From the IMG/VR virus record IMGVR_UViG_3300026549_000895, positions 160,001-224,000 of that record: DNA of 64,000 nucleotides; one strand, given 5' to 3'. Below are positions 16,769-35,166 of the stretch, piece by piece. Under the pieces are notes generated by a model. That model saw nothing but the letters and a program-made list of their open reading frames with translations. It did no database searches and was not told the DNA's origin. Position numbers and translations under genes: made by a program. The DNA comes from a virus. Lineage: Duplodnaviria > Caudoviricetes. The first letter of the stretch is position 1. Each line of letters begins with the position of its first letter.

Positions 16769-16956
16769 AATATGATAAGAAGATAATAAATGTCTCTTAA
16801 TCAGAATCAGATTCAGCCTATATGGCAATTATAAAATATGAGAATCTTAGATGTCTGAGTAATATATGAATTATCTATCTTACACATCACAGCCCACCAG
16901 AAGCTGAGATTCTGGGTAGGATGCAAAAGCCAATGCATCTAAAGAAAGGAAAATTT

Positions 16957-17313
16957 ATGGCTACCATGAAATTCAAACTCGACAAGCTTGAGCAGCGTTT
17001 CCAGGAAAGAAACATTGCAGTAGAAGGATGTGAGCTTGAAATAGAATTTGAACTCGCTGAACTGCCGGGAATAATCAAAGAAATCCCCACTGTAATTAAT
17101 TCAATTTCAGCAGCAGCCGAAAAGAGCAACTCCCGTGAATGGGAGAAAGTATGTAATGAAATAAACGAAGCTAATGACAAGCTTCGTGAGACAGAACGCA
17201 ATTTGCGCGGAGCCGAAGCGCGTGCTGAAGCTGCAGAGCGGAAAGCTCAGAGAAAGCAGGAAGAAGTTGAAGAACTTCGCAAGAAATGCTTCGGAACTCC
17301 TGCTGAAAAGTAA
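16957..17313 (+). CDS. Coiled-coil hypothetical protein in a stand-alone transcription unit
   Basis: RBS GAAAGGA before ATG at 16957; E/K/R/A-rich heptad C-terminus. Confidence 0.6.
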   Translation: MATMKFKLDKLEQRFQERNIAVEGCELEIEFELAELPGIIKEIPTVINSISAAAEKSNSREWEKVCNEINEANDKLRETERNLRGAEARAEAAERKAQRKQEEVEELRKKCFGTPAEK

Positions 17314-17320
17314 GAAAGAT

Positions 17321-17360
17321 AAACCCCACCTTTCGGTGGGGTTTTCTTTTTTCTTTTTTA
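17321..17360 (+). terminator. Intrinsic terminator, probably bidirectional
   Basis: AAACCCCACC-TTTC-GGTGGGGTTT followed by a long T tract; lies between convergent genes. Confidence 0.85.
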
Positions 17361-17456: not shown

Positions 17457-20400
17457 TCACCTCGCTTGCGGATTACTCCAAGTTTTGTCTTCGGCATTCG
17501 GATCCAACACTCCAACTTTTCCATCAATGATAGCAACAGTAGGACGCTCAGATTCAGAGATATTCTTTCTGCCGTGTCGAACAAGATTCTCAAATTCATC
17601 TTTTGTGATTAAATTTCGAATAAAGTCTCCAAACGATTCAGCGAGAAGTGTCACTTTGTAATTATCTTCCTGATCGATGCTTACAACAGGCGGGTCTGCA
17701 TTAGGTCCTGCTTCTCTATAATCGAGGAACACTTCCAAATGGCCACTTACCGGAGTATTGGCAATGTTAAGATAACCTTCGGGGTATCCCCATTCGGATT
17801 GAAGATATTCAGTTCCAAATATACTCGGCTTATTCTTATCGATACCAAGTATATCGGTTATCTCGATATGATCATTTGACCATCCTGTTTTATACCCACA
17901 TGGGAATATGCATCTGTTTACCATGCCACCATTTTGTTGTTTTATCAGCTCTTTGTATGCTGCTGGTAGTTGAACTCCCAATTCATTCTCAGCGCTTGTT
18001 ATATCATCATCTGACACTGGGTTTCCGATGAATTTCTGACCATATGTGGAACTATTGTCCCAGAAATCAGATTGTATAGAAAGCTGTTCGTTATAAATCA
18101 TATCTCTTCTGTCCATCAAATCATTGAAGTTGAAAGATTCAGTAATGTTGATATTCTTTCTACCGTGTTGAATAAGATTCTCGAGATGCTTATTCAAATC
18201 AGCTGTAGCATTAGGATCAAATACAGGAGACTCACCGAGAACGACATCATCAACAGAAGTATCTTCTATTGAATCAAATCCATTGACAAGCCATTCCAAA
18301 TATCTCTTCTGTGTAGGATCAATGAACTTTCCACCATCAGCAAGAATCTGCTTTGCAGCCTTAATACCCTGAGAAGCACGCTGATAATCCGTAGGATGAA
18401 CATCCATGATGAGAGTTCCAATTTCAGAGAACAACTTCACGAGCTTGTCAAGGTTAGTAGATAACATTTCATTGTACTTGAACTTTGTTTGATGATCTTC
18501 AGATGGTATGAAATGGAATACAACAGGAAGTTTGTACATTGCAGCGAATGCGTCTGCAAACTGCTCTTCCAAATCTTTACCAGATTTGAACTGTTGTGCC
18601 ATTTTTCTGAGCATTGCAGGATAAGCTGCAATACCAGTCTTGATGAGTGCTATGAATCCGGATACTGCTGCAAAGACACCGAAGGGTCCACTGACACAAC
18701 CCATAGCAGCACCTGCTGTGAACAATGCGGTGAAACACCAGCTAACAATAGCGGAAGCAACATGACCAGGTTTTGTCTTATACTGATCTTTCAGTTGAGG
18801 AATTACTTCATTGAGTTTGTCGATAAGAACAGTAGCATTCTCATCTGCAGTCTTACCAGTAGCACCATTTCCAGAAAACGTCTGAGAATCATCAGCGGTC
18901 TTCTTAATTTGTTTCGCCTTTACAAAAGCACTCTGAATCTGTTTAGAAGAACACAAAGCGAAGAGTTGTTTCTTAAGAGCAAGCTTCTTCAGCTTATTCA
19001 TTTTTCCGCCAGTCTCTTCAAGATATGTAACATACTTATCGATGAGGATCTTCTTTACCTTCGGAGAATTTACCTGAATAGCACGAGTGATTGTAGCTGA
19101 ATATGCGCCAACCCATGCCATATTATCCCATGCCAACAGAGTTGTTATATTATGGAATATTTCGTGAAGAAGAACAGATGTCAACATCTGACCAAAGTTC
19201 TTTTCTTCCTTAGGAGAAGCGAACTGTAACAAGCCAGTGGAAATACAAATATAGATAGTAAAACCATTCAGCTTGAAACCAGACTTCTTGGATATTGTGA
19301 CTTTGTGTCTCGGATTTACCATTCTATCCACCATGGTATATCCAACCACATCATCGGTATCTTCGAGAGTAAGTCTTATCCTACAATCGAATTGTTCAGC
19401 CAAAGCATCAATACCTTCTTTGAACTTCGGGTTCTTAATTATCTTCTGATAACTCAGAGCTCCATCTTCTTTTACATCAGACTGTTCAGATCTTACTTCA
19501 TTAAAGCATTTGATTGCTTTAACAATACCTGAATTATCAAATCTCATATACTTGATATCTTCCGGCTTGATATTGGATGCTGGAGTAGCTGACTCCTGAA
19601 CATAGTCATGCTTTTCAACGTTATAACCCATCTCTGAGAATGACGCAGTGCCAATATATGGAGTTCCATACAAATCATACAGATACTCAACATATTCATT
19701 TGCCTGCTGTTCATCAGGACCAAATGCTTGAGGTTCAGGATTCTCAGGAGGTTCATTATCAGAACCGAATTCCTGAGGCTTAGGTTCTTCCTGATCATTA
19801 ATGTATACTTTGCTCGGAACTGCAGCAAATGAAGGAGTTTCTTCAGGAGCAACTTCAAACTCTTTGTTCTTCGCAATGCAATCGGTCTGATACTGATCAA
19901 GTGCATTATCAACACGAAGTCCTATGTTATCCAACAGAGTTGCCATTGCACGAATGATGTTATCTTTGTTACCCTGAACATTTGTGTTCTCGGGAGCAAT
20001 GATAAAGTCTTCATGAACTTTAATGGACTTGAGAGAATTATCTCCCATTATATGATCTTCCGGAATATGATAAATATGAGCCAATGACTCAAGAGCACAT
20101 ACAACATCAGGAGCCTTTGCTATAGCTGCTTCGATAACAGCTTTGGCTTCTTCTGTCTTATTAGGATGCTCCCAAGTACTTTCCAGATCCTTTTCGGTTT
20201 CTTTGTTCTCCATATCATCAGATTCAGTCACCGTCTTTCGATTCTGAGCCAGGGACTTTTGCCAAGATGATTGATCTTGATTATTTTGTACTATATTATC
20301 TGATTCACCAAACGACTTTGAAGGTCCTCCAACCTTTGGCGACGCATTAAACGAACTTTGATAATGTTCTTCGGGTTGTTTGTTTGGTGCGGGAGGCGGT

Positions 20401-20630
20401 GAACTCATCGCAGCTTTATCCATACTTGTTGTTCTTTTTACATTTGCAGGAACTTCTGTTTCTTCTTGTATACTATTCTGAACAGTATCAACTACAGATG
20501 CTCCAAAAGGGGTACCATCTGCACTATTAGCAATCTTTGCTTTGTTTACAGCATTTTCTAAATTTGATGCATTGGATTTGATGTCAGGTTTAGGAAGCTT
20601 ATCAGTTTCCAGAGTTATATCGAATCCCAT
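17457..20630 (-). CDS. Multidomain virion protein: low-complexity propeptide, HEXXH zinc metallopeptidase with hydrophobic segments, and SMI1/KNR4 (SUKH) domain
   Basis: LLHEIFH, EEQFADAFA and HPTDYQR (M48-like arrangement); SUKH signature AENELGVQLPAAY..QQNGG..EWGYP..GHLEVFLDY..DQE..LAESFGDFIRNL. Confidence 0.75.
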   Translation of the reverse strand: MGFDITLETDKLPKPDIKSNASNLENAVNKAKIANSADGTPFGASVVDTVQNSIQEETEVPANVKRTTSMDKAAMSSPPPAPNKQPEEHYQSSFNASPKVGGPSKSFGESDNIVQNNQDQSSWQKSLAQNRKTVTESDDMENKETEKDLESTWEHPNKTEEAKAVIEAAIAKAPDVVCALESLAHIYHIPEDHIMGDNSLKSIKVHEDFIIAPENTNVQGNKDNIIRAMATLLDNIGLRVDNALDQYQTDCIAKNKEFEVAPEETPSFAAVPSKVYINDQEEPKPQEFGSDNEPPENPEPQAFGPDEQQANEYVEYLYDLYGTPYIGTASFSEMGYNVEKHDYVQESATPASNIKPEDIKYMRFDNSGIVKAIKCFNEVRSEQSDVKEDGALSYQKIIKNPKFKEGIDALAEQFDCRIRLTLEDTDDVVGYTMVDRMVNPRHKVTISKKSGFKLNGFTIYICISTGLLQFASPKEEKNFGQMLTSVLLHEIFHNITTLLAWDNMAWVGAYSATITRAIQVNSPKVKKILIDKYVTYLEETGGKMNKLKKLALKKQLFALCSSKQIQSAFVKAKQIKKTADDSQTFSGNGATGKTADENATVLIDKLNEVIPQLKDQYKTKPGHVASAIVSWCFTALFTAGAAMGCVSGPFGVFAAVSGFIALIKTGIAAYPAMLRKMAQQFKSGKDLEEQFADAFAAMYKLPVVFHFIPSEDHQTKFKYNEMLSTNLDKLVKLFSEIGTLIMDVHPTDYQRASQGIKAAKQILADGGKFIDPTQKRYLEWLVNGFDSIEDTSVDDVVLGESPVFDPNATADLNKHLENLIQHGRKNINITESFNFNDLMDRRDMIYNEQLSIQSDFWDNSSTYGQKFIGNPVSDDDITSAENELGVQLPAAYKELIKQQNGGMVNRCIFPCGYKTGWSNDHIEITDILGIDKNKPSIFGTEYLQSEWGYPEGYLNIANTPVSGHLEVFLDYREAGPNADPPVVSIDQEDNYKVTLLAESFGDFIRNLITKDEFENLVRHGRKNISESERPTVAIIDGKVGVLDPNAEDKTWSNPQAR
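17559..18182. repeat. 33-bp imperfect direct repeat flanking the SUKH cassette (17559-17591 and 18150-18182)
   Basis: GATATTCTTTCTGCCGTGTCGAACAAGATTCTC versus GATATTCTTTCTACCGTGTTGAATAAGATTCTC (3 mismatches). Confidence 0.9.
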
Positions 20631-22438: not shown

Positions 22439-23188
22439 TTAATTTCGATTTTTGTTCATCATTTCACGAATCTTGTTAATTGCATAATAGGATTCTGAAA
22501 CCAAGTCTGTTTTCAATCCCATAGCAGCAAAGAACAAATCCGCCTGTAACAGTGTAGGTTTATCAAGAATACCAGTTTTGATATTTTCCAATTTAACGGA
22601 ACCTTTCTCCGAAATTTCTTCTACCATATTCTGATATTCATTAACATTATCTCCACGAGCACCAGTAAACTCAGAAAGGATTTCTTTTGCTCCAACTCCG
22701 GCAAGCAATTCGTTCTCCATTCCAGTCATAGTACCGCCCTTTGAATCACCCTTAGCTTCACCTGTCATCTCATCGACATCTGAATCTGACAAGATAAGAC
22801 CCTGCTTTTTGGTGACCAATTGCTGTGGTCTTTTTATGTTAAGATAAGCTACCAGTACAGGAGTTCGTGATCTTATTGGGCGGTTCGGGTCACTGGAGAT
22901 ATGTGGCATATAGATGTATTCAAACAATTTTAGATGTAACAAATCCGCAGCTTTCTCAACATTCTCAAATTTGATCTTTCTATTTTCAGGACCAAATTCT
23001 TCAATGTCAATTCTGAGATTACTTTTCTTATCTCCAAATAACTTTTGGAAATACTCATCGAACTGTTTGTCATTCATTGTCTGAAACATGTTTCGATATT
23101 TCTTTGCATTCACTCCAGATGGATCGATAGTACTGACAACATCATCAATTAATTTTTCCATCTTTTTTCGTTTGTCAGAAGTTATCAT
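22439..23188 (-). CDS. Multisubunit RNA polymerase, beta C-terminal subunit (probably virion RNAP)
   Basis: YLNIKRPQQ..KK..D..TGEAKGDSKGG..GMENELLAGVGAKEILSEFTGARGD corresponds to the RpoB C-terminal TQQP..GG..GEME..L...GA...L.E....KSD block; located among structural genes. Confidence 0.75.
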   Translation of the reverse strand: MITSDKRKKMEKLIDDVVSTIDPSGVNAKKYRNMFQTMNDKQFDEYFQKLFGDKKSNLRIDIEEFGPENRKIKFENVEKAADLLHLKLFEYIYMPHISSDPNRPIRSRTPVLVAYLNIKRPQQLVTKKQGLILSDSDVDEMTGEAKGDSKGGTMTGMENELLAGVGAKEILSEFTGARGDNVNEYQNMVEEISEKGSVKLENIKTGILDKPTLLQADLFFAAMGLKTDLVSESYYAINKIREMMNKNRN

Positions 23189-23710: not shown

Positions 23711-24451
23711 TTAAGTTGGATGATTGTTATCAGTCTTCACATATTCAGATAAGAATTCATCATATTTCTTGTCAAGAATTTTGATGTAATAGTGTCCCAT
23801 CTTCCTACATTCATTTTCCATCATAGCATCTTTTCTTCTCTCAATATCCCTGAGATGTTCCATATAATTATCATTATAACCACCTTGCTTGATTTCAACA
23901 TGTAAACTCAAAGAAGGAATAAAGAAATCCGGAATGTAGAGATGTGTTGTACCATCTTTCCACTTGTACCAGAAGTCAGTTGGAGATGGAGCTATGATAT
24001 CATCCGGATCCCATTCCAATGACTTTAAGAACTTCAAGAAATCCTCTTCATAACTACCAATGATTCTGAAGGTATGTTTGTCATCCCATTTAAAGTCTTT
24101 GGCATCATGATGATTGTACAACATCTTTCGTTGCTGATCAGCTTCATTCAGAAGATGTTCTTTGCCGTATACTTTCACCATATTTGATTTGGCTTGTTTT
24201 GTATATTCTTCTTTACATTTTTCTGAACAGATTCGACCGTATTTCAGTGTCTCTTCATTGAACTTAACATTGTTCTTTTTACAAACAACACACAGTCTTC
24301 CAACCGGTTTCTTCACTAATAAAGAATATGCAAATTCCAAAGGTTCATATTCCTCTGGAACTTGGTCGTTATGCTTTTCTGCTATATGATGACAATACTT
24401 TTGTTTGTCATTAAATATTTTTGTACAGAACGGACATTTTGTATTACGCAA
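23711..24451 (-). CDS. Zinc-finger PD-(D/E)xK nuclease (TnsA-like / head-completion nuclease)
   Basis: CPFC..H....H and CVVC..CSEKC; YIPDF..VEIK. Confidence 0.7.
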   Translation of the reverse strand: MRNTKCPFCTKIFNDKQKYCHHIAEKHNDQVPEEYEPLEFAYSLLVKKPVGRLCVVCKKNNVKFNEETLKYGRICSEKCKEEYTKQAKSNMVKVYGKEHLLNEADQQRKMLYNHHDAKDFKWDDKHTFRIIGSYEEDFLKFLKSLEWDPDDIIAPSPTDFWYKWKDGTTHLYIPDFFIPSLSLHVEIKQGGYNDNYMEHLRDIERRKDAMMENECRKMGHYYIKILDKKYDEFLSEYVKTDNNHPT

Positions 24452-25521: not shown

Positions 25522-28500
25522 ATGAAAGGAATGAGTTTAATGTCAGACACAAAGTTTGTTTTTTCTGGGAACTTTGAGAAGCAAATAGATTTATTGTGTA
25601 AAGCATATGATAAATTGTATACTGCTTTGAATGGTTTGAAGAATGAAAAGTTTGGGAATTATGGTTTGTGTTGTGTTGACTATGGTTTCCGAATTATCAG
25701 ACCTTCTGATGTTGCTACTTATGTAGATTATCTTCTGAAGATGATGCAGAGTAGACAGTTGGATTTTGGCAGTCCTACTGATTTGAATGTGTTCAATGTA
25801 TCTTTTGTTAAGAAGGTACTGAAAGAGAACGGTTCTGATTCATTAGAGAAAGCAATGGAAAATGCTTGTGGTTTGAGTTGGATTAATCCTAAGAGAACGA
25901 ATCTTGATAATGTACGTAGTATGCTTGAGAGAGAATGCTTTAGGACGATGATTTATTCAAACTGGGAAATGATGAAGAGAGTTCGTAGTGATCAGTTTGA
26001 GAGTGATTTGAAACTGATTTCGGATATGGGTTTTGTTCGTACAATGAAGAACGTTGTGAATGCAATACCTGGAATCCTGAATGGAGACGATTACTTCAAG
26101 GGAATTGGTAATTCACACTTGGTGGATCTGGTTCGTGTTAATATTGAAGAAATGATTATCTTCGTATTTGCTTTGAATATTCGAACAATGATGAGCATGA
26201 AGAGATATGGCTCACCTCGTTCTTCTTATGATGTACCTTCTTCATCTCACGAGGTACTGAATTTCAATGAGAGTGTTGATGTGTCGAAATGCAGACCTGT
26301 ATTCATTGTTCTGACTGAAGGCAAGACTCCTTTGATGTCAGCTGGTATTCGTCATATTACCCATTCGAACTTCACTCATGTTTCAATTGGATTTGATCCT
26401 TCTTTGAACAAAATGTATTCTTTCGGCGGTCCTTATCAGGGTGATGAGTATTCATCTGATTCTTTCGGTTGTAGAATAGAATCAATGGGAGACGGTGTAC
26501 TGGCTGACAAATACGTCAAAGTGTTTGTTTGTTGGATATCTGCTGATTCGGTTTATAAGATGATGGAAACTTGCGAAGATTTCATCAATAACCAATCTGA
26601 TACTCGTTTCAATTGGAGTATGATTCGTAACTTCGTACTCGGTATCGATAAGGACATGGGAAGTGATAAGTATCATCAGATCTGTTCTTCTTTCGTGAAC
26701 TTGCTGTTCAAGAACGTCGGAATTCAATTGTTCGATGATAAGAATGTACCTTCGCCTGTTGACTATGAAAACATGGTTGATGATAACAAAGATAAGTTTG
26801 TTCAGATCTACTATGGTAAGGCATCGGGTTATTCCGACAAATACTTCGTGATCGCGGATAAGTTCGCAACAAAGAAGAAGTCACAACAGTTCGATGATGT
26901 AGTGACCGAGTGTTGTTTGTTGAAGACGAACAGATTCGTATTTTCCAACAAGATTCCGTATAACTGCAACTTCCGTGATATCGTGTGCAACGATATGCAT
27001 CCTCACTTCAAAGATACCAAGTCGGCTTTGATGTACATTCTCGGAAATGTTGATTCTCCAATTTGTATGCTGTTGACTGAATATGCTTCTCAACAGGCAA
27101 TGGATATACTGATGAATGGCAATGCGGTGGATTCTTCATTCTTGAAGATGATAACAAGAGTGTGTCCTTATGATTCTTCATATGTTGATCATCATGAATT
27201 CAAGAAATACACAACAACCGATACCGAGGATGACTACTATAAGAAGTGGCACAATATCGGTATGCAGACTGATCCGAACTGGCTCGACAAGATTGCATAT
27301 GGCAACAACTTTCTTGACGGTAATTACCGTCGCGATGCTATGGGCACTGGTAATTCAATGCCCATTGCGAATACACTCGATATGATCTGGAAGATGTATT
27401 CTGTGGATTCTTGCGACAATAAGACTCTTGCTGATAACATTTGCAAGATAGGTGGTTTGATGCTGAACATCATAAAGGTATATTCCCAAAACAGACTTCC
27501 CAACTGGGAATTCGTTCGTGATGTTCTGAGTGTTCTTGGTGAATTGTTGACTCGTTCAATGCTTCATTTGTATGCTAATAACACCGAAATCATTTCGCTG
27601 TCTGATACAATGGAAGATACCAATGATCCTGGTTATATGTATTCTGAAGCATTCTATATTATGGAAGCTGACGATAACAATCAACAACAACAATCCAATG
27701 GTGGTAAAGTTCAAGGTGCAACCATTGCTGGTGACACTTCTAAACCTGGTGCTGTTGGTGGTGCATTAGCCAGTGCGAAAGCCGCTGCTAAATCATTCCT
27801 TAAGTGGGTTATAAAGGCATTCGGTCATATCGTTGAAGATTTCAAAAATCGTCATGTCAATGAAATGAACGCTGTCTTGAAGGATAACGCTGAAATCAAC
27901 GATAAAATCTCTGCGGCCGTTGGAAAGGATTATACTGTAACATTGAACGGTTTCCGCAATTATGATTTCAAACCCGACGTTGTTAAGGGATTATTCTCAT
28001 CGGTTGCTGAATTCATGGATCCCAAGAGATTTGGTGATAAGGAATATTCAGCTGCAAATGTGCTTGCAGAAGCATATTCGAAAACACTTAGTCAAGCAAC
28101 AATTTCTCCGGATGAAATGAAGGATGATAAGAAGCGTGCTGAAGCATTGGTAACTTGGGCACTGCACGGAAAGTATCCTTATAAACCCGATCAGGATAAT
28201 TCGAGTAAAAGGCTTGATAATGAAACATGGAATAATATTGTTAACAGTCTGAAAGATTTCTCCAATAACCAGAAGCTTGTAGCTGACCAGTTCAAGAATG
28301 ATCTTGATAATGTCGGTAAGAAGGTTGAGGCTCAAACAACCGATGAGAAGAATTCCGCTAATGTAAATAAGGAAATTCTTACAAAACTCTCATTGGATTC
28401 TGCGGCTATTCAGACTGCATTGATGAAACAGTTCTTCAAGTTCAATTACGAGACTTATTCGAATATTGTAAACAACTTCAAGTCCAAGGGTGAGTCTTCA

Positions 28501-28614
28501 TCTTCTGATAACAACAATAATGAACAACCTAAGACGGAAGGTACTGATGAAGTTTCTGCTGATACAGGTGCTGATGCTTCTAATAACAATAATGCTCAGC
28601 CTAAGGAACAATAA
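25522..28614 (+). CDS. Large inner-head protein with an embedded permuted papain-like (NlpC/P60, YiiX/C92-type) domain
   Basis: PVFIVL..FTHVSI (His) precedes QICSSFV (Cys) and PSPVDY; flanking FNES and VVTEC sites, plus IMEA. Confidence 0.65.
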   Translation: MKGMSLMSDTKFVFSGNFEKQIDLLCKAYDKLYTALNGLKNEKFGNYGLCCVDYGFRIIRPSDVATYVDYLLKMMQSRQLDFGSPTDLNVFNVSFVKKVLKENGSDSLEKAMENACGLSWINPKRTNLDNVRSMLERECFRTMIYSNWEMMKRVRSDQFESDLKLISDMGFVRTMKNVVNAIPGILNGDDYFKGIGNSHLVDLVRVNIEEMIIFVFALNIRTMMSMKRYGSPRSSYDVPSSSHEVLNFNESVDVSKCRPVFIVLTEGKTPLMSAGIRHITHSNFTHVSIGFDPSLNKMYSFGGPYQGDEYSSDSFGCRIESMGDGVLADKYVKVFVCWISADSVYKMMETCEDFINNQSDTRFNWSMIRNFVLGIDKDMGSDKYHQICSSFVNLLFKNVGIQLFDDKNVPSPVDYENMVDDNKDKFVQIYYGKASGYSDKYFVIADKFATKKKSQQFDDVVTECCLLKTNRFVFSNKIPYNCNFRDIVCNDMHPHFKDTKSALMYILGNVDSPICMLLTEYASQQAMDILMNGNAVDSSFLKMITRVCPYDSSYVDHHEFKKYTTTDTEDDYYKKWHNIGMQTDPNWLDKIAYGNNFLDGNYRRDAMGTGNSMPIANTLDMIWKMYSVDSCDNKTLADNICKIGGLMLNIIKVYSQNRLPNWEFVRDVLSVLGELLTRSMLHLYANNTEIISLSDTMEDTNDPGYMYSEAFYIMEADDNNQQQQSNGGKVQGATIAGDTSKPGAVGGALASAKAAAKSFLKWVIKAFGHIVEDFKNRHVNEMNAVLKDNAEINDKISAAVGKDYTVTLNGFRNYDFKPDVVKGLFSSVAEFMDPKRFGDKEYSAANVLAEAYSKTLSQATISPDEMKDDKKRAEALVTWALHGKYPYKPDQDNSSKRLDNETWNNIVNSLKDFSNNQKLVADQFKNDLDNVGKKVEAQTTDEKNSANVNKEILTKLSLDSAAIQTALMKQFFKFNYETYSNIVNNFKSKGESSSSDNNNNEQPKTEGTDEVSADTGADASNNNNAQPKEQ

Positions 28615-28635: not shown

Positions 28636-29493
28636 ATGCCACTTAAGTCAACTCAAACAAACAAATACGAAACCGCATGTTTCGTACAGGAAGCTGGAGT
28701 AGGAGCAAACATGGACAGAGGAACTCTTAAGATTCTTAAGAATAAATCTGATGGCCGTCCATATTGTAAATTCGATTCCGTACTGTGGTCATTCGCTGGT
28801 AAGAATAGAATGGGAAGATTCTATGATATCAATAATGCAAAGGCATGTATTAATAACGACACCAGAATCCAGAAGTTGAAATCCATCAACAAATGGAGAG
28901 GAGAACTGAATCATCCTAATCCGGACATCAAAGGACAGGAATTCAACTCTATCAGAATGACTATTCCTGAGCAGACCAGAACCTCTCACTTCATAAACAA
29001 GGATAGATTCGATGGTCTTCAGTACAAGGCTGAGATTACTACAAATGGTGCTAATACCGAATGTGGCAATCAGGTAAACTGGGAAATCATTGATAATGGT
29101 TCAGTACCGGATTTCTCTGTACGCCTTATGGGAATTATGATTCCTAATGCTCCTATGGGTAGACCGAATATGAGAGTCAACAGAGTCATTACTTTTGACA
29201 TGGTTGATTTCCCTTCACACGAAGATGCTGAAGCAGATATCAAACCTGTTCAGGAATCAGCTGACATTTGTAAGATTATATTCCTTCAGGATCTGGCAAA
29301 GTACTGTGTTGAACAGTCTGAGAATCTCAGATGTGTATGTGAATCATTTGAAATTACTCCTGAGGAAGTATATGGAATCAGAGATGGTTCTATTGAAATT
29401 CATCAACGCGACTCTTCTAAGATTCTGATTCCTATGGAGAAGCAGATCAGAAGAGAAGCTATCTCAATTATTCTTGGAAAGGGGATTCTGTAA
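28636..29493 (+). CDS. Prohead core protease (T4 gp21-like)
   Basis: GELNHP, FSVR..G and TFDMVDFPS motifs; upstream of the capsid gene. Confidence 0.85.
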   Translation: MPLKSTQTNKYETACFVQEAGVGANMDRGTLKILKNKSDGRPYCKFDSVLWSFAGKNRMGRFYDINNAKACINNDTRIQKLKSINKWRGELNHPNPDIKGQEFNSIRMTIPEQTRTSHFINKDRFDGLQYKAEITTNGANTECGNQVNWEIIDNGSVPDFSVRLMGIMIPNAPMGRPNMRVNRVITFDMVDFPSHEDAEADIKPVQESADICKIIFLQDLAKYCVEQSENLRCVCESFEITPEEVYGIRDGSIEIHQRDSSKILIPMEKQIRREAISIILGKGIL

Positions 29494-33069: not shown

Positions 33070-35166
33070 ATGGCATACAGCCGTACAAGAAATGGTGCTC
33101 CTTCATGGTATCAGGAAACTGCCGAGATACTCGACAAGTTCCCGAAGGAAGAGTACGAAGGTCTCAACTCCAATGAATTCGATCAGCGACTCGAAGACAC
33201 AGGAAAGTTCATCAAGGAACATTATGACATCGACATTCGTCAGGACTTCGGACGAATGATAAAGAACAAGCCTCTTATGGCCGACTACAAGCAGCAGTTC
33301 CTCAATCCTGTTCTTGATGCATACAGAAACTATCCTACTGACAATGCGGACGTTAAGTGTCACCTTGAGCAGGTTGCTAAGGAGCTCGAAGAGGCTTGGG
33401 ATCAGACTGTTGAAACCGGAGTTGTACAGGAGGCTTATACAACAGCTCAGTACCTCCCGCTTACTACAATGGACTATCCTGCTCTCGTAAAGCAGTTCAT
33501 CCGCTTCCTCGGTAAGGATCTTATTCCGATTCAGACTGCTAACAACACTACACTTGAGCAGCGTATCTTCACAAAGTACCTTGTAAACAATCAGACTGGT
33601 GAGGAGTACGAGGTTCCCCGTATTTACTTCGAGACTGATCCCGACGGCACTCCTGCTTGGAGAAAGATCTGGAATGCAGGTAAGGGCTGGAGATTCAACA
33701 ACCATACTGTTCTTCCTGTTGCTACTATTCAGGCTGCTACAAACAAGCAGTACAGCGTATACAACTGGATCCTCAACGATGCAGGTGAAGCTTCTACTCT
33801 TGCAACTGTATCAAAGCTTCCTGAGTTCAGAGCACGTGTTGCTTATGACTTCAAGATCAAGTATGTTCAGGTTACAACCGGCTCTGGTGCTTCTGCTGCG
33901 ACTAAGAAGGTTCGTCTCCCTGGCAACGGTGTTGAGATCGACATTCAGTCTGGTGGTAACTTCATCGGCGCCGTAATTACAGAGAACATGGTTCTTCCTG
34001 TAGTTACTGAGTGGATCGCTCCTACAAAGGAAGCTCCTAACCCTGACAACAGCAAGTTCAATATGCCTACTGGTGAGACCGTTACAGGTATCTCTGATAA
34101 GGTATCTGGTTTCATCGACTACACAAAAGGCAAGCTCACTGTTTCTACTTGTGGCGTAATCACAGGTGTATACATTGAGGGTCACGTATCTAACGAAACT
34201 AACACAAGAACAATCGGCTTCCGTGAGTATCCTGAAATCAGAAAGTTCACAATTTCTGATGGATGCCGCTTCCAGCTCCCGTTCACTGTAGAGGACTTCG
34301 CTGAGGCAAACAAGAACCTCAACTTCAACCTCTACAATCGTCAGGTTCAGCAGCTCGTTATGAACTCTGAGTTCTTCGAGGATCAGTCTATCCTTGATTA
34401 CCTCGATGCTAACTTCAAGGAGTACGACGGTTATGCTTCTGATGCATTCAACCTCGAGAGCTACAACCACACTGAGTTCGCTGATCTCGATCCTACTGCT
34501 ATTTCTCCTACATTCAGCGGTAACCCGTTCGAGTACAGAAGCGATGCTATTTACAACGCTACAGATTCTGTAATCTACGAGCTTTGCGACAGAGGCAAGC
34601 TTGACAACCTCGGATTCGTTGTATATGCAAATCCGAAGGCTTGCAGACTTCTCCAGAAGTATGTTTCTTGGACAACTACTAAGGGAACAGACATCGGCGG
34701 CGTTCAGATGAACCATGCATTCGGCATGATCAAGGATTCTTCTGTTCCGATCCGTGTTGTATCTTCTAACAGAGTACCTGCTTACATCACTCTTGATGCT
34801 ACAAAGGTATATGATGATGCTACAGCTGGTCAGCTTACAAAGGAATACTTCTTCAAGATCGTTGCTTACCCGATGGATAAGCACCACATCACATTCAAGC
34901 ACCTCCGTTTCGCTCGTCACCTTACTAACTCTCCTGAGAACGCTGCATATGCAGATGCTCAGAATCCGGGCGGCGCAGCTGTAATGGTTACAGTATCCAG
35001 CCAGTATGAGACAATCTCTATTCAGGGTATCCAGGGTCGTGTTATCTGCAAGAACACTAAGCTCGTTCCTGATACTCTTGCTGGTGTGTATACACCTACT
35101 AACAACAATCAGCAGAGCAGCGGCGGCCAGAACCAGGGTACCGACACAGGTAACGGTGGTAACTAA
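33070..35166 (+). CDS. Major capsid protein precursor
   Basis: 698 aa; strong high-expression-type codon bias; downstream of protease and scaffold-like genes; predicted maturation site VVQE/A; followed by a hairpin. Confidence 0.75.
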   Translation: MAYSRTRNGAPSWYQETAEILDKFPKEEYEGLNSNEFDQRLEDTGKFIKEHYDIDIRQDFGRMIKNKPLMADYKQQFLNPVLDAYRNYPTDNADVKCHLEQVAKELEEAWDQTVETGVVQEAYTTAQYLPLTTMDYPALVKQFIRFLGKDLIPIQTANNTTLEQRIFTKYLVNNQTGEEYEVPRIYFETDPDGTPAWRKIWNAGKGWRFNNHTVLPVATIQAATNKQYSVYNWILNDAGEASTLATVSKLPEFRARVAYDFKIKYVQVTTGSGASAATKKVRLPGNGVEIDIQSGGNFIGAVITENMVLPVVTEWIAPTKEAPNPDNSKFNMPTGETVTGISDKVSGFIDYTKGKLTVSTCGVITGVYIEGHVSNETNTRTIGFREYPEIRKFTISDGCRFQLPFTVEDFAEANKNLNFNLYNRQVQQLVMNSEFFEDQSILDYLDANFKEYDGYASDAFNLESYNHTEFADLDPTAISPTFSGNPFEYRSDAIYNATDSVIYELCDRGKLDNLGFVVYANPKACRLLQKYVSWTTTKGTDIGGVQMNHAFGMIKDSSVPIRVVSSNRVPAYITLDATKVYDDATAGQLTKEYFFKIVAYPMDKHHITFKHLRFARHLTNSPENAAYADAQNPGGAAVMVTVSSQYETISIQGIQGRVICKNTKLVPDTLAGVYTPTNNNQQSSGGQNQGTDTGNGGN

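Follow-up and report, generated by a model that had tools for sequence, protein, structure and literature searches.

An optional, exchangeable SUKH cassette in a large protein of a cattle-gut jumbo phage, and a candidate route for its delivery from the head

The internal protein IPI* of bacteriophage T4, like IPII, IPIII and Alt, carries a capsid-targeting leader and is cleaved by gp21. In the 2007 work of Bair, Rifat and Black, IPI* is said to be an injected inhibitor of the restriction enzyme GmrSD. Here we describe a locus that resembles this system in outline, in that we propose a counter-defence precursor that would be loaded into the prohead, trimmed after glutamate and injected. The locus lies in a 64,000-nt stretch (the window), positions 160,001 to 224,000 of the single 239,830-bp virus record IMGVR_UViG_3300026549_000895, and its central gene (17457..20630, minus strand; positions are those of the window unless marked otherwise) encodes a 1057-aa protein, which we call the carrier, with a SUKH domain in its C-terminal tail. 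In contrast to IPI*, which is a small separate protein, the proposed cargo is an optional, strain-swapped SUKH module on a large carrier.

Two further comparisons concern phages of the same type. The head and ejection proteins of phiKZ, 201phi2-1 and SPN3US, which are processed by the prohead protease gp175/gp245, come from phages that resemble ours in having split RNA polymerases, a large capsid protein and a prohead protease. In SPN3US cleavage follows A-x-E, preferably with Ser at the next position (P1'), and the substrates include ejection proteins (PMC10052503). What is alike is a cut after the glutamate of a three-residue motif with Ser or Ala next, as well as a protease that loses a C-terminal piece; what differs is the motif itself, which is A-x-E in SPN3US and [V/I]-Q-E here. 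AR9 g078 (KU878088) illustrates for AR9-type phages that a precursor of several domains is trimmed so that only one part of it stays in the virion, but g078 is a different protein from the carrier, and its non-polymerase domain is the part reported not found in AR9 virions.

The remaining two comparisons concern domain architecture. Polyvalent proteins combine several domains, in many cases including a zincin-like peptidase, and are proposed to travel with the DNA and to be split into separate units (Iyer et al. 2017, PMC5512222). With its HExxH core, its optional modules and its synteny with the head module the carrier may resemble them, but no SUKH or immunity proteins appear in PMC5512222, the carrier has no LPD-type Pfam domain and its module joints would match the putative motif of the head protease. 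The Imm-SUKH immunity proteins of polymorphic toxin systems, for example YobK (2prv), have the same domain family and fold as the cassette, and SUKH domains are known to be fused to other immunity domains in polyimmunity proteins (Zhang et al. 2012, PMC3482391). In the present case the domain is embedded in a protein of a phage structural module and not placed beside a toxin gene: its neighbours are an RNA polymerase subunit, unknown open reading frames (ORFs) and an endolysin.

An optional SUKH cassette in the tail of the carrier

The carrier consists of a variable acidic N-terminal region, a conserved zincin-like core and a C-terminal tail with the SUKH cassette. A first reading of the DNA made without database searches, hereafter the sequence-only reading, had placed an apparently complete SUKH domain in the last ~200 codons, and both profile and structure searches agree with it. 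Pfam SMI1_KNR4 (PF09346) matches residues 871-1005 (17616-18020) over model positions 1-124/125 (E 4.6e-20, 72.9 bits versus a cut-off of 25.4), and SUKH_6 (PF14568) matches with an E of 4.5e-19 (69.6 bits versus a cut-off of 27). In an AlphaFold2 model of residues 832-1057, built from 85 sequences, the per-residue confidence score (pLDDT) is 94-98 over residues ~852-1011; the model and Foldseek delimit a folded domain of residues ~852-1021 (17568..18077, minus strand). Foldseek returns Bacillus subtilis YobK (2prv) as the best fold match in the PDB, with 2icg, 3d5p (BF1740), yeast Knr4 and human FBXO3 among the other best matches, each with a probability of 1.00. The domain is thus a complete member of the SUKH/SMI1_KNR4 superfamily.

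The phage itself is an AR9/phiKZ-type jumbo phage from the cattle gut. It encodes a family-B DNA polymerase in split form, RNA polymerase beta fragments of the phiKZ type, a prohead protease, a 698-aa capsid protein and an amidase-type endolysin that matches many phage endolysin families, and nearly all of the runs in which the stretch occurs are gut or cattle-gut metagenomes. Scans of IMG/VR and of genome contigs found no relatives; a search with the core of the carrier yielded 77 relatives, the close subset of which forms 31 protein clusters, and alignments of 27 and of 60 family members were used below.

Comparison of these homologues identifies the SUKH domain as an insertion with empty alleles, which the sequence-only reading had predicted. 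The insert corresponds to residues Y846-N1023 (17562..18095, minus strand; 534 nt, in frame). The allele L001 (contig JAEEGK010000545.1), which is 95% identical, represents the empty form: it aligns on both sides of the domain, and a codon-by-codon comparison gives a difference of exactly 534 nt. A SUKH domain is present in 8 of the 31 close clusters and absent from the remainder, including proteins that are 95-97% identical. The same polymorphism is seen in four public cattle-gut runs. One contig of run X2 joins position 17561 directly to 18096, while another contig of X2 has the SUKH domain; this net 534 nt is likewise passed over by contigs of runs X3, X6 and X11, and a SUKH-bearing contig occurs in X6 as well. 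For X3, X6 and X11 we used the joints alone and did not count uncovered parts as absence. Since X2 and X6 each hold both kinds of contig, SUKH-bearing and empty alleles coexist in single samples.

Both flanks of the insert belong to the empty allele too. On its N-terminal side this is a spacer of residues 833-845 (18096..18134, minus strand), modelled as flexible, and on its C-terminal side the tail S1027-R1057 (17460..17552, minus strand), which is absent in some lineages. The tail also varies between strains: others have an extra codon behind 17540, with R-D replacing T, and end three codons earlier, where the window allele reads on through Q-A-R (17457-17468). A second variable spot lies beside the 3' end of the carrier gene at 17078-17322, in the 3' part of a convergent ORF (16921..17313), where ~120-240 nt are replaced or skipped in contigs of several runs.

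The cassette has a history different from that of its carriers. In pairs of SUKH-bearing proteins from different lineages the core is 70-82% identical and the SUKH part 85-99%; for P0001 and P0015 the values are 74% and 98%. Because the SUKH parts are so much more alike than the cores, the sequences indicate that the cassette is exchanged by recombination between diverged phage lineages. The domain also evolves under constraint: where the window and the SUKH-bearing contig of X2 differ, the 22 changes with the best support are synonymous in 17 cases and at the third codon position in 16 (p = 2e-4), and the cassette is under purifying selection, changing mostly synonymously.

Could the cassette be a neutral passenger, an in-frame insertion that the protein tolerates and that recombination spreads with no advantage to the phage? 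It is found in a minority of sequences, and the C-terminal tail is a variable and tolerant place. The excess of synonymous differences, the intact fold and the maintenance of frame in every allele are difficult to reconcile with such a history, as are the spread of the cassette across carriers that differ by 20-30% and the retention of related SUKH modules in a second carrier (see below). We regard neutrality as very improbable.

The SUKH domain is bracketed by a 33-nt direct repeat with three mismatches, a feature noticed in the sequence-only reading and confirmed here: positions 17559-17591 and 18150-18182 are identical at 30 of 33 nt, and a search that allowed 3 mismatches finds just these two copies in the 64 kb, with 0.00 expected from 100 shuffles. 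Both copies are on the minus strand. Copy 1 (18150..18182) encodes residues 817-827, E-N-L-I-Q-H-G-R-K-N-I, and runs on into N-I-T-E/S (a slash within a motif marks a predicted cut or a joint); copy 2 (17559..17591) encodes residues 1014-1024, E-N-L-V-R-H-G-R-K-N-I, and runs on into S-E/S. The likeness continues across a 6-nt indel because both copies are followed by glutamate motifs. We considered H-G-R-K-N as a motif common to other phage proteins and rejected the idea, as it is found in the carrier alone among the ORFs of the genome.

The repeat had been read as a target-site duplication that included the cleavage signal, and this part of the sequence-only reading does not survive the comparison. 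Copy 1 is a motif of the carrier itself, which stays invariant in homologues as distant as 40% identity and which the model shows as the end of the last helix of the core plus a strand; 21 codons separate its end from the left joint. Copy 2, except for its last codon, is part of the insert; it reaches beyond the point at which stand-alone SUKH proteins naturally end, and the model loses confidence along it. The joints of the insert resemble each other only in A-T-G-A-T-T and A-A-G-A-A-T. Nor did the cleavage signal need duplication, since the empty allele already has a second glutamate motif, I-I-T-E/S, at the joint. Copy 2 may instead be later, having arisen as recombination with the motif already present in the gene joined the tail on again, because the SUKH alleles P0003, P0014 and P0010 stop soon after the domain, without copy 2 and without the tail, and P0010 is the outgroup of the carrier family's SUKH sequences in our tree, which is a quick version.

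A probable pool of exchangeable phage modules

Capture of a bacterial immunity gene was the origin first suggested for the cassette, and shuffling of modules among phage proteins fits the data better. In a full-library search the closest SUKH domains outside the family, at 51-56% identity, are in the large proteins P0104-P0108; the conserved C-terminal part of these proteins is matched by a further gene of the phage, outside the window (G000:C1:63525-65237). Stand-alone bacterial relatives, including those of Bacteroides and Phocaeicola, reach 43-48% identity at most, and in the quick tree the two phage SUKH groups form one clade with a Shimodaira-Hasegawa-like approximate likelihood ratio test (SH-aLRT) value of 99. 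We therefore rejected a direct, recent bacterial capture; as the nearest SUKH relatives are phage modules and the bacterial ones are more distant, the cassette most probably came out of a stock of phage modules and not directly from a bacterium. Members of this second carrier family (G000:C1:63525-65237 and P0104-P0108) are strongly acidic at the N-terminus and match Coat_F weakly, and the SUKH module of P0104-P0108 is flanked by acidic linkers that end in I-Q-E/G or V-Q-E/G.

Different cargo at the place occupied by SUKH had also been anticipated, and it does occur in other family members. L023, L008, L007 and P0058 have other modules after the same conserved site, with linkers that include Y-V-Q-E/S and V-L-Q-E/G. 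A second optional module, of 177 aa and belonging to the N-terminal region of the carrier, is missing from the window, where its empty site V165/I166 (20133..20138, minus strand) lies in A-V/I-E-A; it is filled in L001 (L001:8499-9029) and in P0004, P0006, P0016 and P0027, and the joints of the filled form read V-L-E/S and V-I-E/A. These joints have a 5-nt direct repeat, C-T-G-T-T. The 177-aa module is found in none of the 8 SUKH-bearing clusters, numbers too small to call exclusion. Pfam searches of this module and of the long tails of L023, L008, L007 and P0058 returned nothing above cut-off. A small four-cysteine zinc ribbon, common to G000:C1:59769-59936 (within a 996-aa protein), P0104 residues 34-89 and the tail of a distant carrier homologue (L007:4235-4453), is a second example of module shuffling.

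The 996-aa protein just mentioned (G000:C1:58908-61898, outside the window) bears on another explanation, in which SUKH would neutralise a toxin-type enzyme from the phage's own packaged cargo, either protecting the producing cell or silencing the enzyme in the capsid. This multi-domain protein starts with M-E-Y-I-F-E/A and has a GNAT domain above the Pfam cut-off, a transglutaminase-like core just above it and a near-threshold papain-fold toxin match (Gln_amidase, 22.7 bits versus 24.1), so that a candidate enzyme is at hand. Most alleles of the carrier, including those 95-97% identical, lack SUKH all the same, which means that the domain is not needed to survive the phage's own cargo, and we found no nuclease or deaminase toxin adjoining it. 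Self-immunity of this kind appears to us quite unlikely, though less so than a neutral passenger.

The zincin-like core, its glutamate motifs and the head

The conserved core of the carrier spans residues 349-831 (18138..19586, minus strand). Across 60 homologues its invariant residues are the HExxH motif (H-E-I-F-H at 19152-19166), then a distal E-E..D..A and then H-P....R, and a hydrophobic helical hairpin is modelled between the invariant motifs at residues ~621-683. Judged by these motifs the core is a putative zincin-like metallopeptidase, and their order recalls M48/M56 peptidases. The Pfam M48 profile (PF01435) gave no match at E up to 1 in the carrier and up to 10 in the genome, and control genomes were matched. 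Foldseek with the core retrieves BepA and 3c37 weakly (E 0.15-0.5), a wide structural search is filled by helical hairpins, and protein-atlas matches to LPD1 and IrrE-like clusters score 0.75-0.78, at noise level. Pfam finds no MPTase domain in the carrier, just as it finds no LPD-type one, and the carrier profile retrieved nothing meaningful from PDB sequences.

Glutamate motifs connect the carrier to the prohead protease (28636..29493, plus strand; phrog_3014 and phrog_207, head maturation protease) and to the 698-aa major capsid protein (33070..35166, plus strand). The motif V-Q-E-[A/S] occurs 12 times in the genome where 1 is expected: twice in the protease, at residues 18-21 and 206-209 of 285, in the capsid protein (V-V-Q-E/A at residue ~120), in the 983-aa and 996-aa proteins and in the carrier, where Y-V-Q-E/S at residues 345-349 (19584..19598, minus strand) is a canonical copy situated just before the core. 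Genome-wide, patterns of the form x-?-E-[A/S] favour Ile (z 3.3) and Val (z 2.2) at P3, and at P2 strongly favour Gln (z 9.3), mildly Ser (z 2.3) and not Thr. The second V-Q-E/S of the protease is positioned like the self-cleavage site of SPN3US gp245, and a hydrophobic-x-Glu-[A/S] motif is kept at the N-terminal border of the core in nearly all 60 homologues. The carrier starts with M-G-F-D-I-T-L-E/T (20607..20630, minus strand), and its relatives have short leaders that end in hydrophobic-x-Glu, such as M-K-T-I-Q-E/A; by analogy, these leaders may be likened to the T4-type capsid-targeting leader.

Three further glutamate motifs, all on the minus strand, surround the cassette. Site 1, N-I-T-E/S (E831/S832; 18135..18149), ends the core, and its glutamate is invariant in 27 of 27 and in 60 of 60 aligned family members; what follows E831 in the family are short, unconserved tails, and model confidence drops right behind it. 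Site 2a, I-Y-N-E/Q at the left joint (18084..18098), reads V-V-M-E/Q or V-I-Q-E/H in other alleles and aligns with the I-I-T-E/S of the empty allele. Site 2b, I-S-E/S at the right joint (E1026/S1027; 17550..17561), is in a low-confidence, presumably flexible stretch. On either side of the SUKH fold the model has low confidence; both ends of the cassette thus lie in flexible linkers with glutamate-ending motifs, which is in keeping with the sequence-only reading. We interpret the I-T-E/S and I-S-E/S flanks as non-canonical versions of the motif of the capsid protein and protease; their role as protease sites is a prediction.

The flanks might alternatively be hinges. SUKH would then remain uncut and bring a bound toxin or host protein to the zincin-like core or to the membrane, much as the SUKH domain of FBXO3 acts in a ubiquitin ligase. 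The invariant HExxH, downstream Glu/Asp and H-P....R of the core would suit such a tethered adaptor, FBXO3 is among the fold matches, and the flanking I-T-E/S and I-S-E/S are not of the enriched type. But the glutamate of site 1 is invariant even before tails of 3-18 residues, which speaks for a processing site more than for a hinge, the position is also taken by unrelated modules, and the same SUKH clade is found on a carrier without a peptidase. On balance we hold this arrangement to be unlikely.

Genomic context also ties the carrier to the head. At more than 30 distant loci the carrier homologue comes just after the homologue of a 1030-aa head-module protein (25522..28614, plus strand, in the window), directly downstream of it and on the same strand, and it lies upstream of the prohead protease wherever the locus reaches that far. 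In the window, as compared with loci L009-L051, the carrier is on the opposite strand and behind a virion RNA polymerase subunit gene; because gene order and strand differ here from those of most relatives, an inversion or relocation is indicated. The carrier gene is the last of a tightly spaced minus-strand string, in our reading one operon. This string includes a gene at 22439..23188 (minus strand), an orthologue of phiKZ gp149 (a structural head protein), AR9 g078 and phiR1-37 g203, of which AR9 g078 is a virion RNA polymerase subunit annotated as proteolysed. The string is headed by an endonuclease gene (23711-24451, minus strand; phrog_15137, with a weaker HNH-endonuclease match), the homologues of which vary in position and strand among related loci. 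From the motif, the conserved borders, the synteny and the gene-string partner, which are good circumstantial ties, we infer that the carrier is a head protein.

The same context has to be weighed against a location outside the virion. An unpackaged carrier could be inserted in the membrane by its hairpin, SUKH would shield the infected cell from polymorphic toxins of its neighbours, and the glutamate motifs would be structural or cut by the carrier itself. The hydrophobic hairpin combined with an HExxH core is what one would expect of such a protein, the gene is opposite in strand to the capsid operon and beside replication and lysis genes, and for polyvalent proteins processing by the zincin domain of the protein itself has been proposed (PMC5512222). 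Yet the gene string includes the virion RNA polymerase subunit, the gene is within the head module in most relatives, the carrier shares its Y-V-Q-E/S with the capsid protein and the protease, and the short leaders of the relatives end in glutamate. A non-virion membrane protein is, in our estimate, about as improbable as a tethered adaptor.

A possible route from prohead to host

Taken together, the optional in-frame SUKH module could be a cargo cassette that is freed by the prohead protease, injected and used to block a toxin-type effector. We give this explanation a little less than an even chance, which still places it ahead of those considered above. Its first component, the presence of an exchanged and selected SUKH cassette, is observed; packaging, cutting, ejection and target are steps that we infer. 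The carrier would be loaded into the prohead, where the protease would cut after the glutamate of hydrophobic-x-Glu, at E831/S832 and/or E848/Q849 on the N-terminal side and at E1026/S1027 on the C-terminal side. This would free a folded SUKH protein of ~20 kDa, too large to exit the shell, which would be ejected with the DNA. In the new host it would bind and block an effector of toxin type, a nuclease or deaminase by class, derived either from host defence or from competing bacteria. The cassette would be one of several alternative modules plugged into head proteins at such joints and swapped by recombination.

Several observations count against this cargo route. No toxin partner is known for the SUKH cassette. 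The known substrates of the SPN3US protease, with the exception of the protease itself, lose N-terminal propeptides and not C-terminal pieces or modules (PMC10052503). About 9 in 10 of the sampled sequences are without the cassette, which is therefore dispensable. The flanking motifs are imperfect: the sequence-only reading took I-T-E/S and I-S-E/S as predicted head-protease sites, whereas the type enriched in the genome is [V/I]-Q-E-[A/S], and [V/I]-T-E-[A/S] is not enriched (5 observed versus 5.3 expected). The figures for [L/I/V]-[T/S]-E-S are 12 versus 9.8, [V/I]-S-E-[A/S] is mildly enriched, and at site 2a the P1' residue is Gln or His and not Ala or Ser. The head location rests on context, as the carrier profile detected no homologue in AR9 or phiKZ and the phage, being uncultured, has no proteome. 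Finally, an HExxH core with a hairpin could act at the cell membrane, or cleave itself with no need of the head protease.

A wider version of the cargo route is that gut jumbo phages share a pool of swappable cargo modules, toxin-immunity domains such as SUKH among them, that plug into several head proteins at protease-site joints, so that the injected kit varies by allele, and that SUKH, once injected, inhibits a host anti-phage effector of the nuclease type, which would connect polymorphic-toxin immunity with phage counter-defence. This version is doubtful, less probable than the cargo route as such and somewhat more probable than either the adaptor or the membrane alternative.

The literature we searched has no description of SUKH domains as phage head cargo. 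If the domain is freed in the capsid and injected, SUKH would be a pre-made inhibitor that acts before phage gene expression, as T4 IPI* does, and it would come from a large superfamily of toxin-immunity proteins whose part in phage biology has hardly been explored. The natural pair of SUKH-bearing and empty alleles, 95-97% identical and found in the same sample, provides an experiment already set up for identifying the target. The logic of the joints, in which modules bounded by putative head-protease motifs are exchanged between carriers, could guide the loading of chosen proteins into phage capsids of laboratory strains, and it suggests how jumbo phages may diversify the proteins that they inject.

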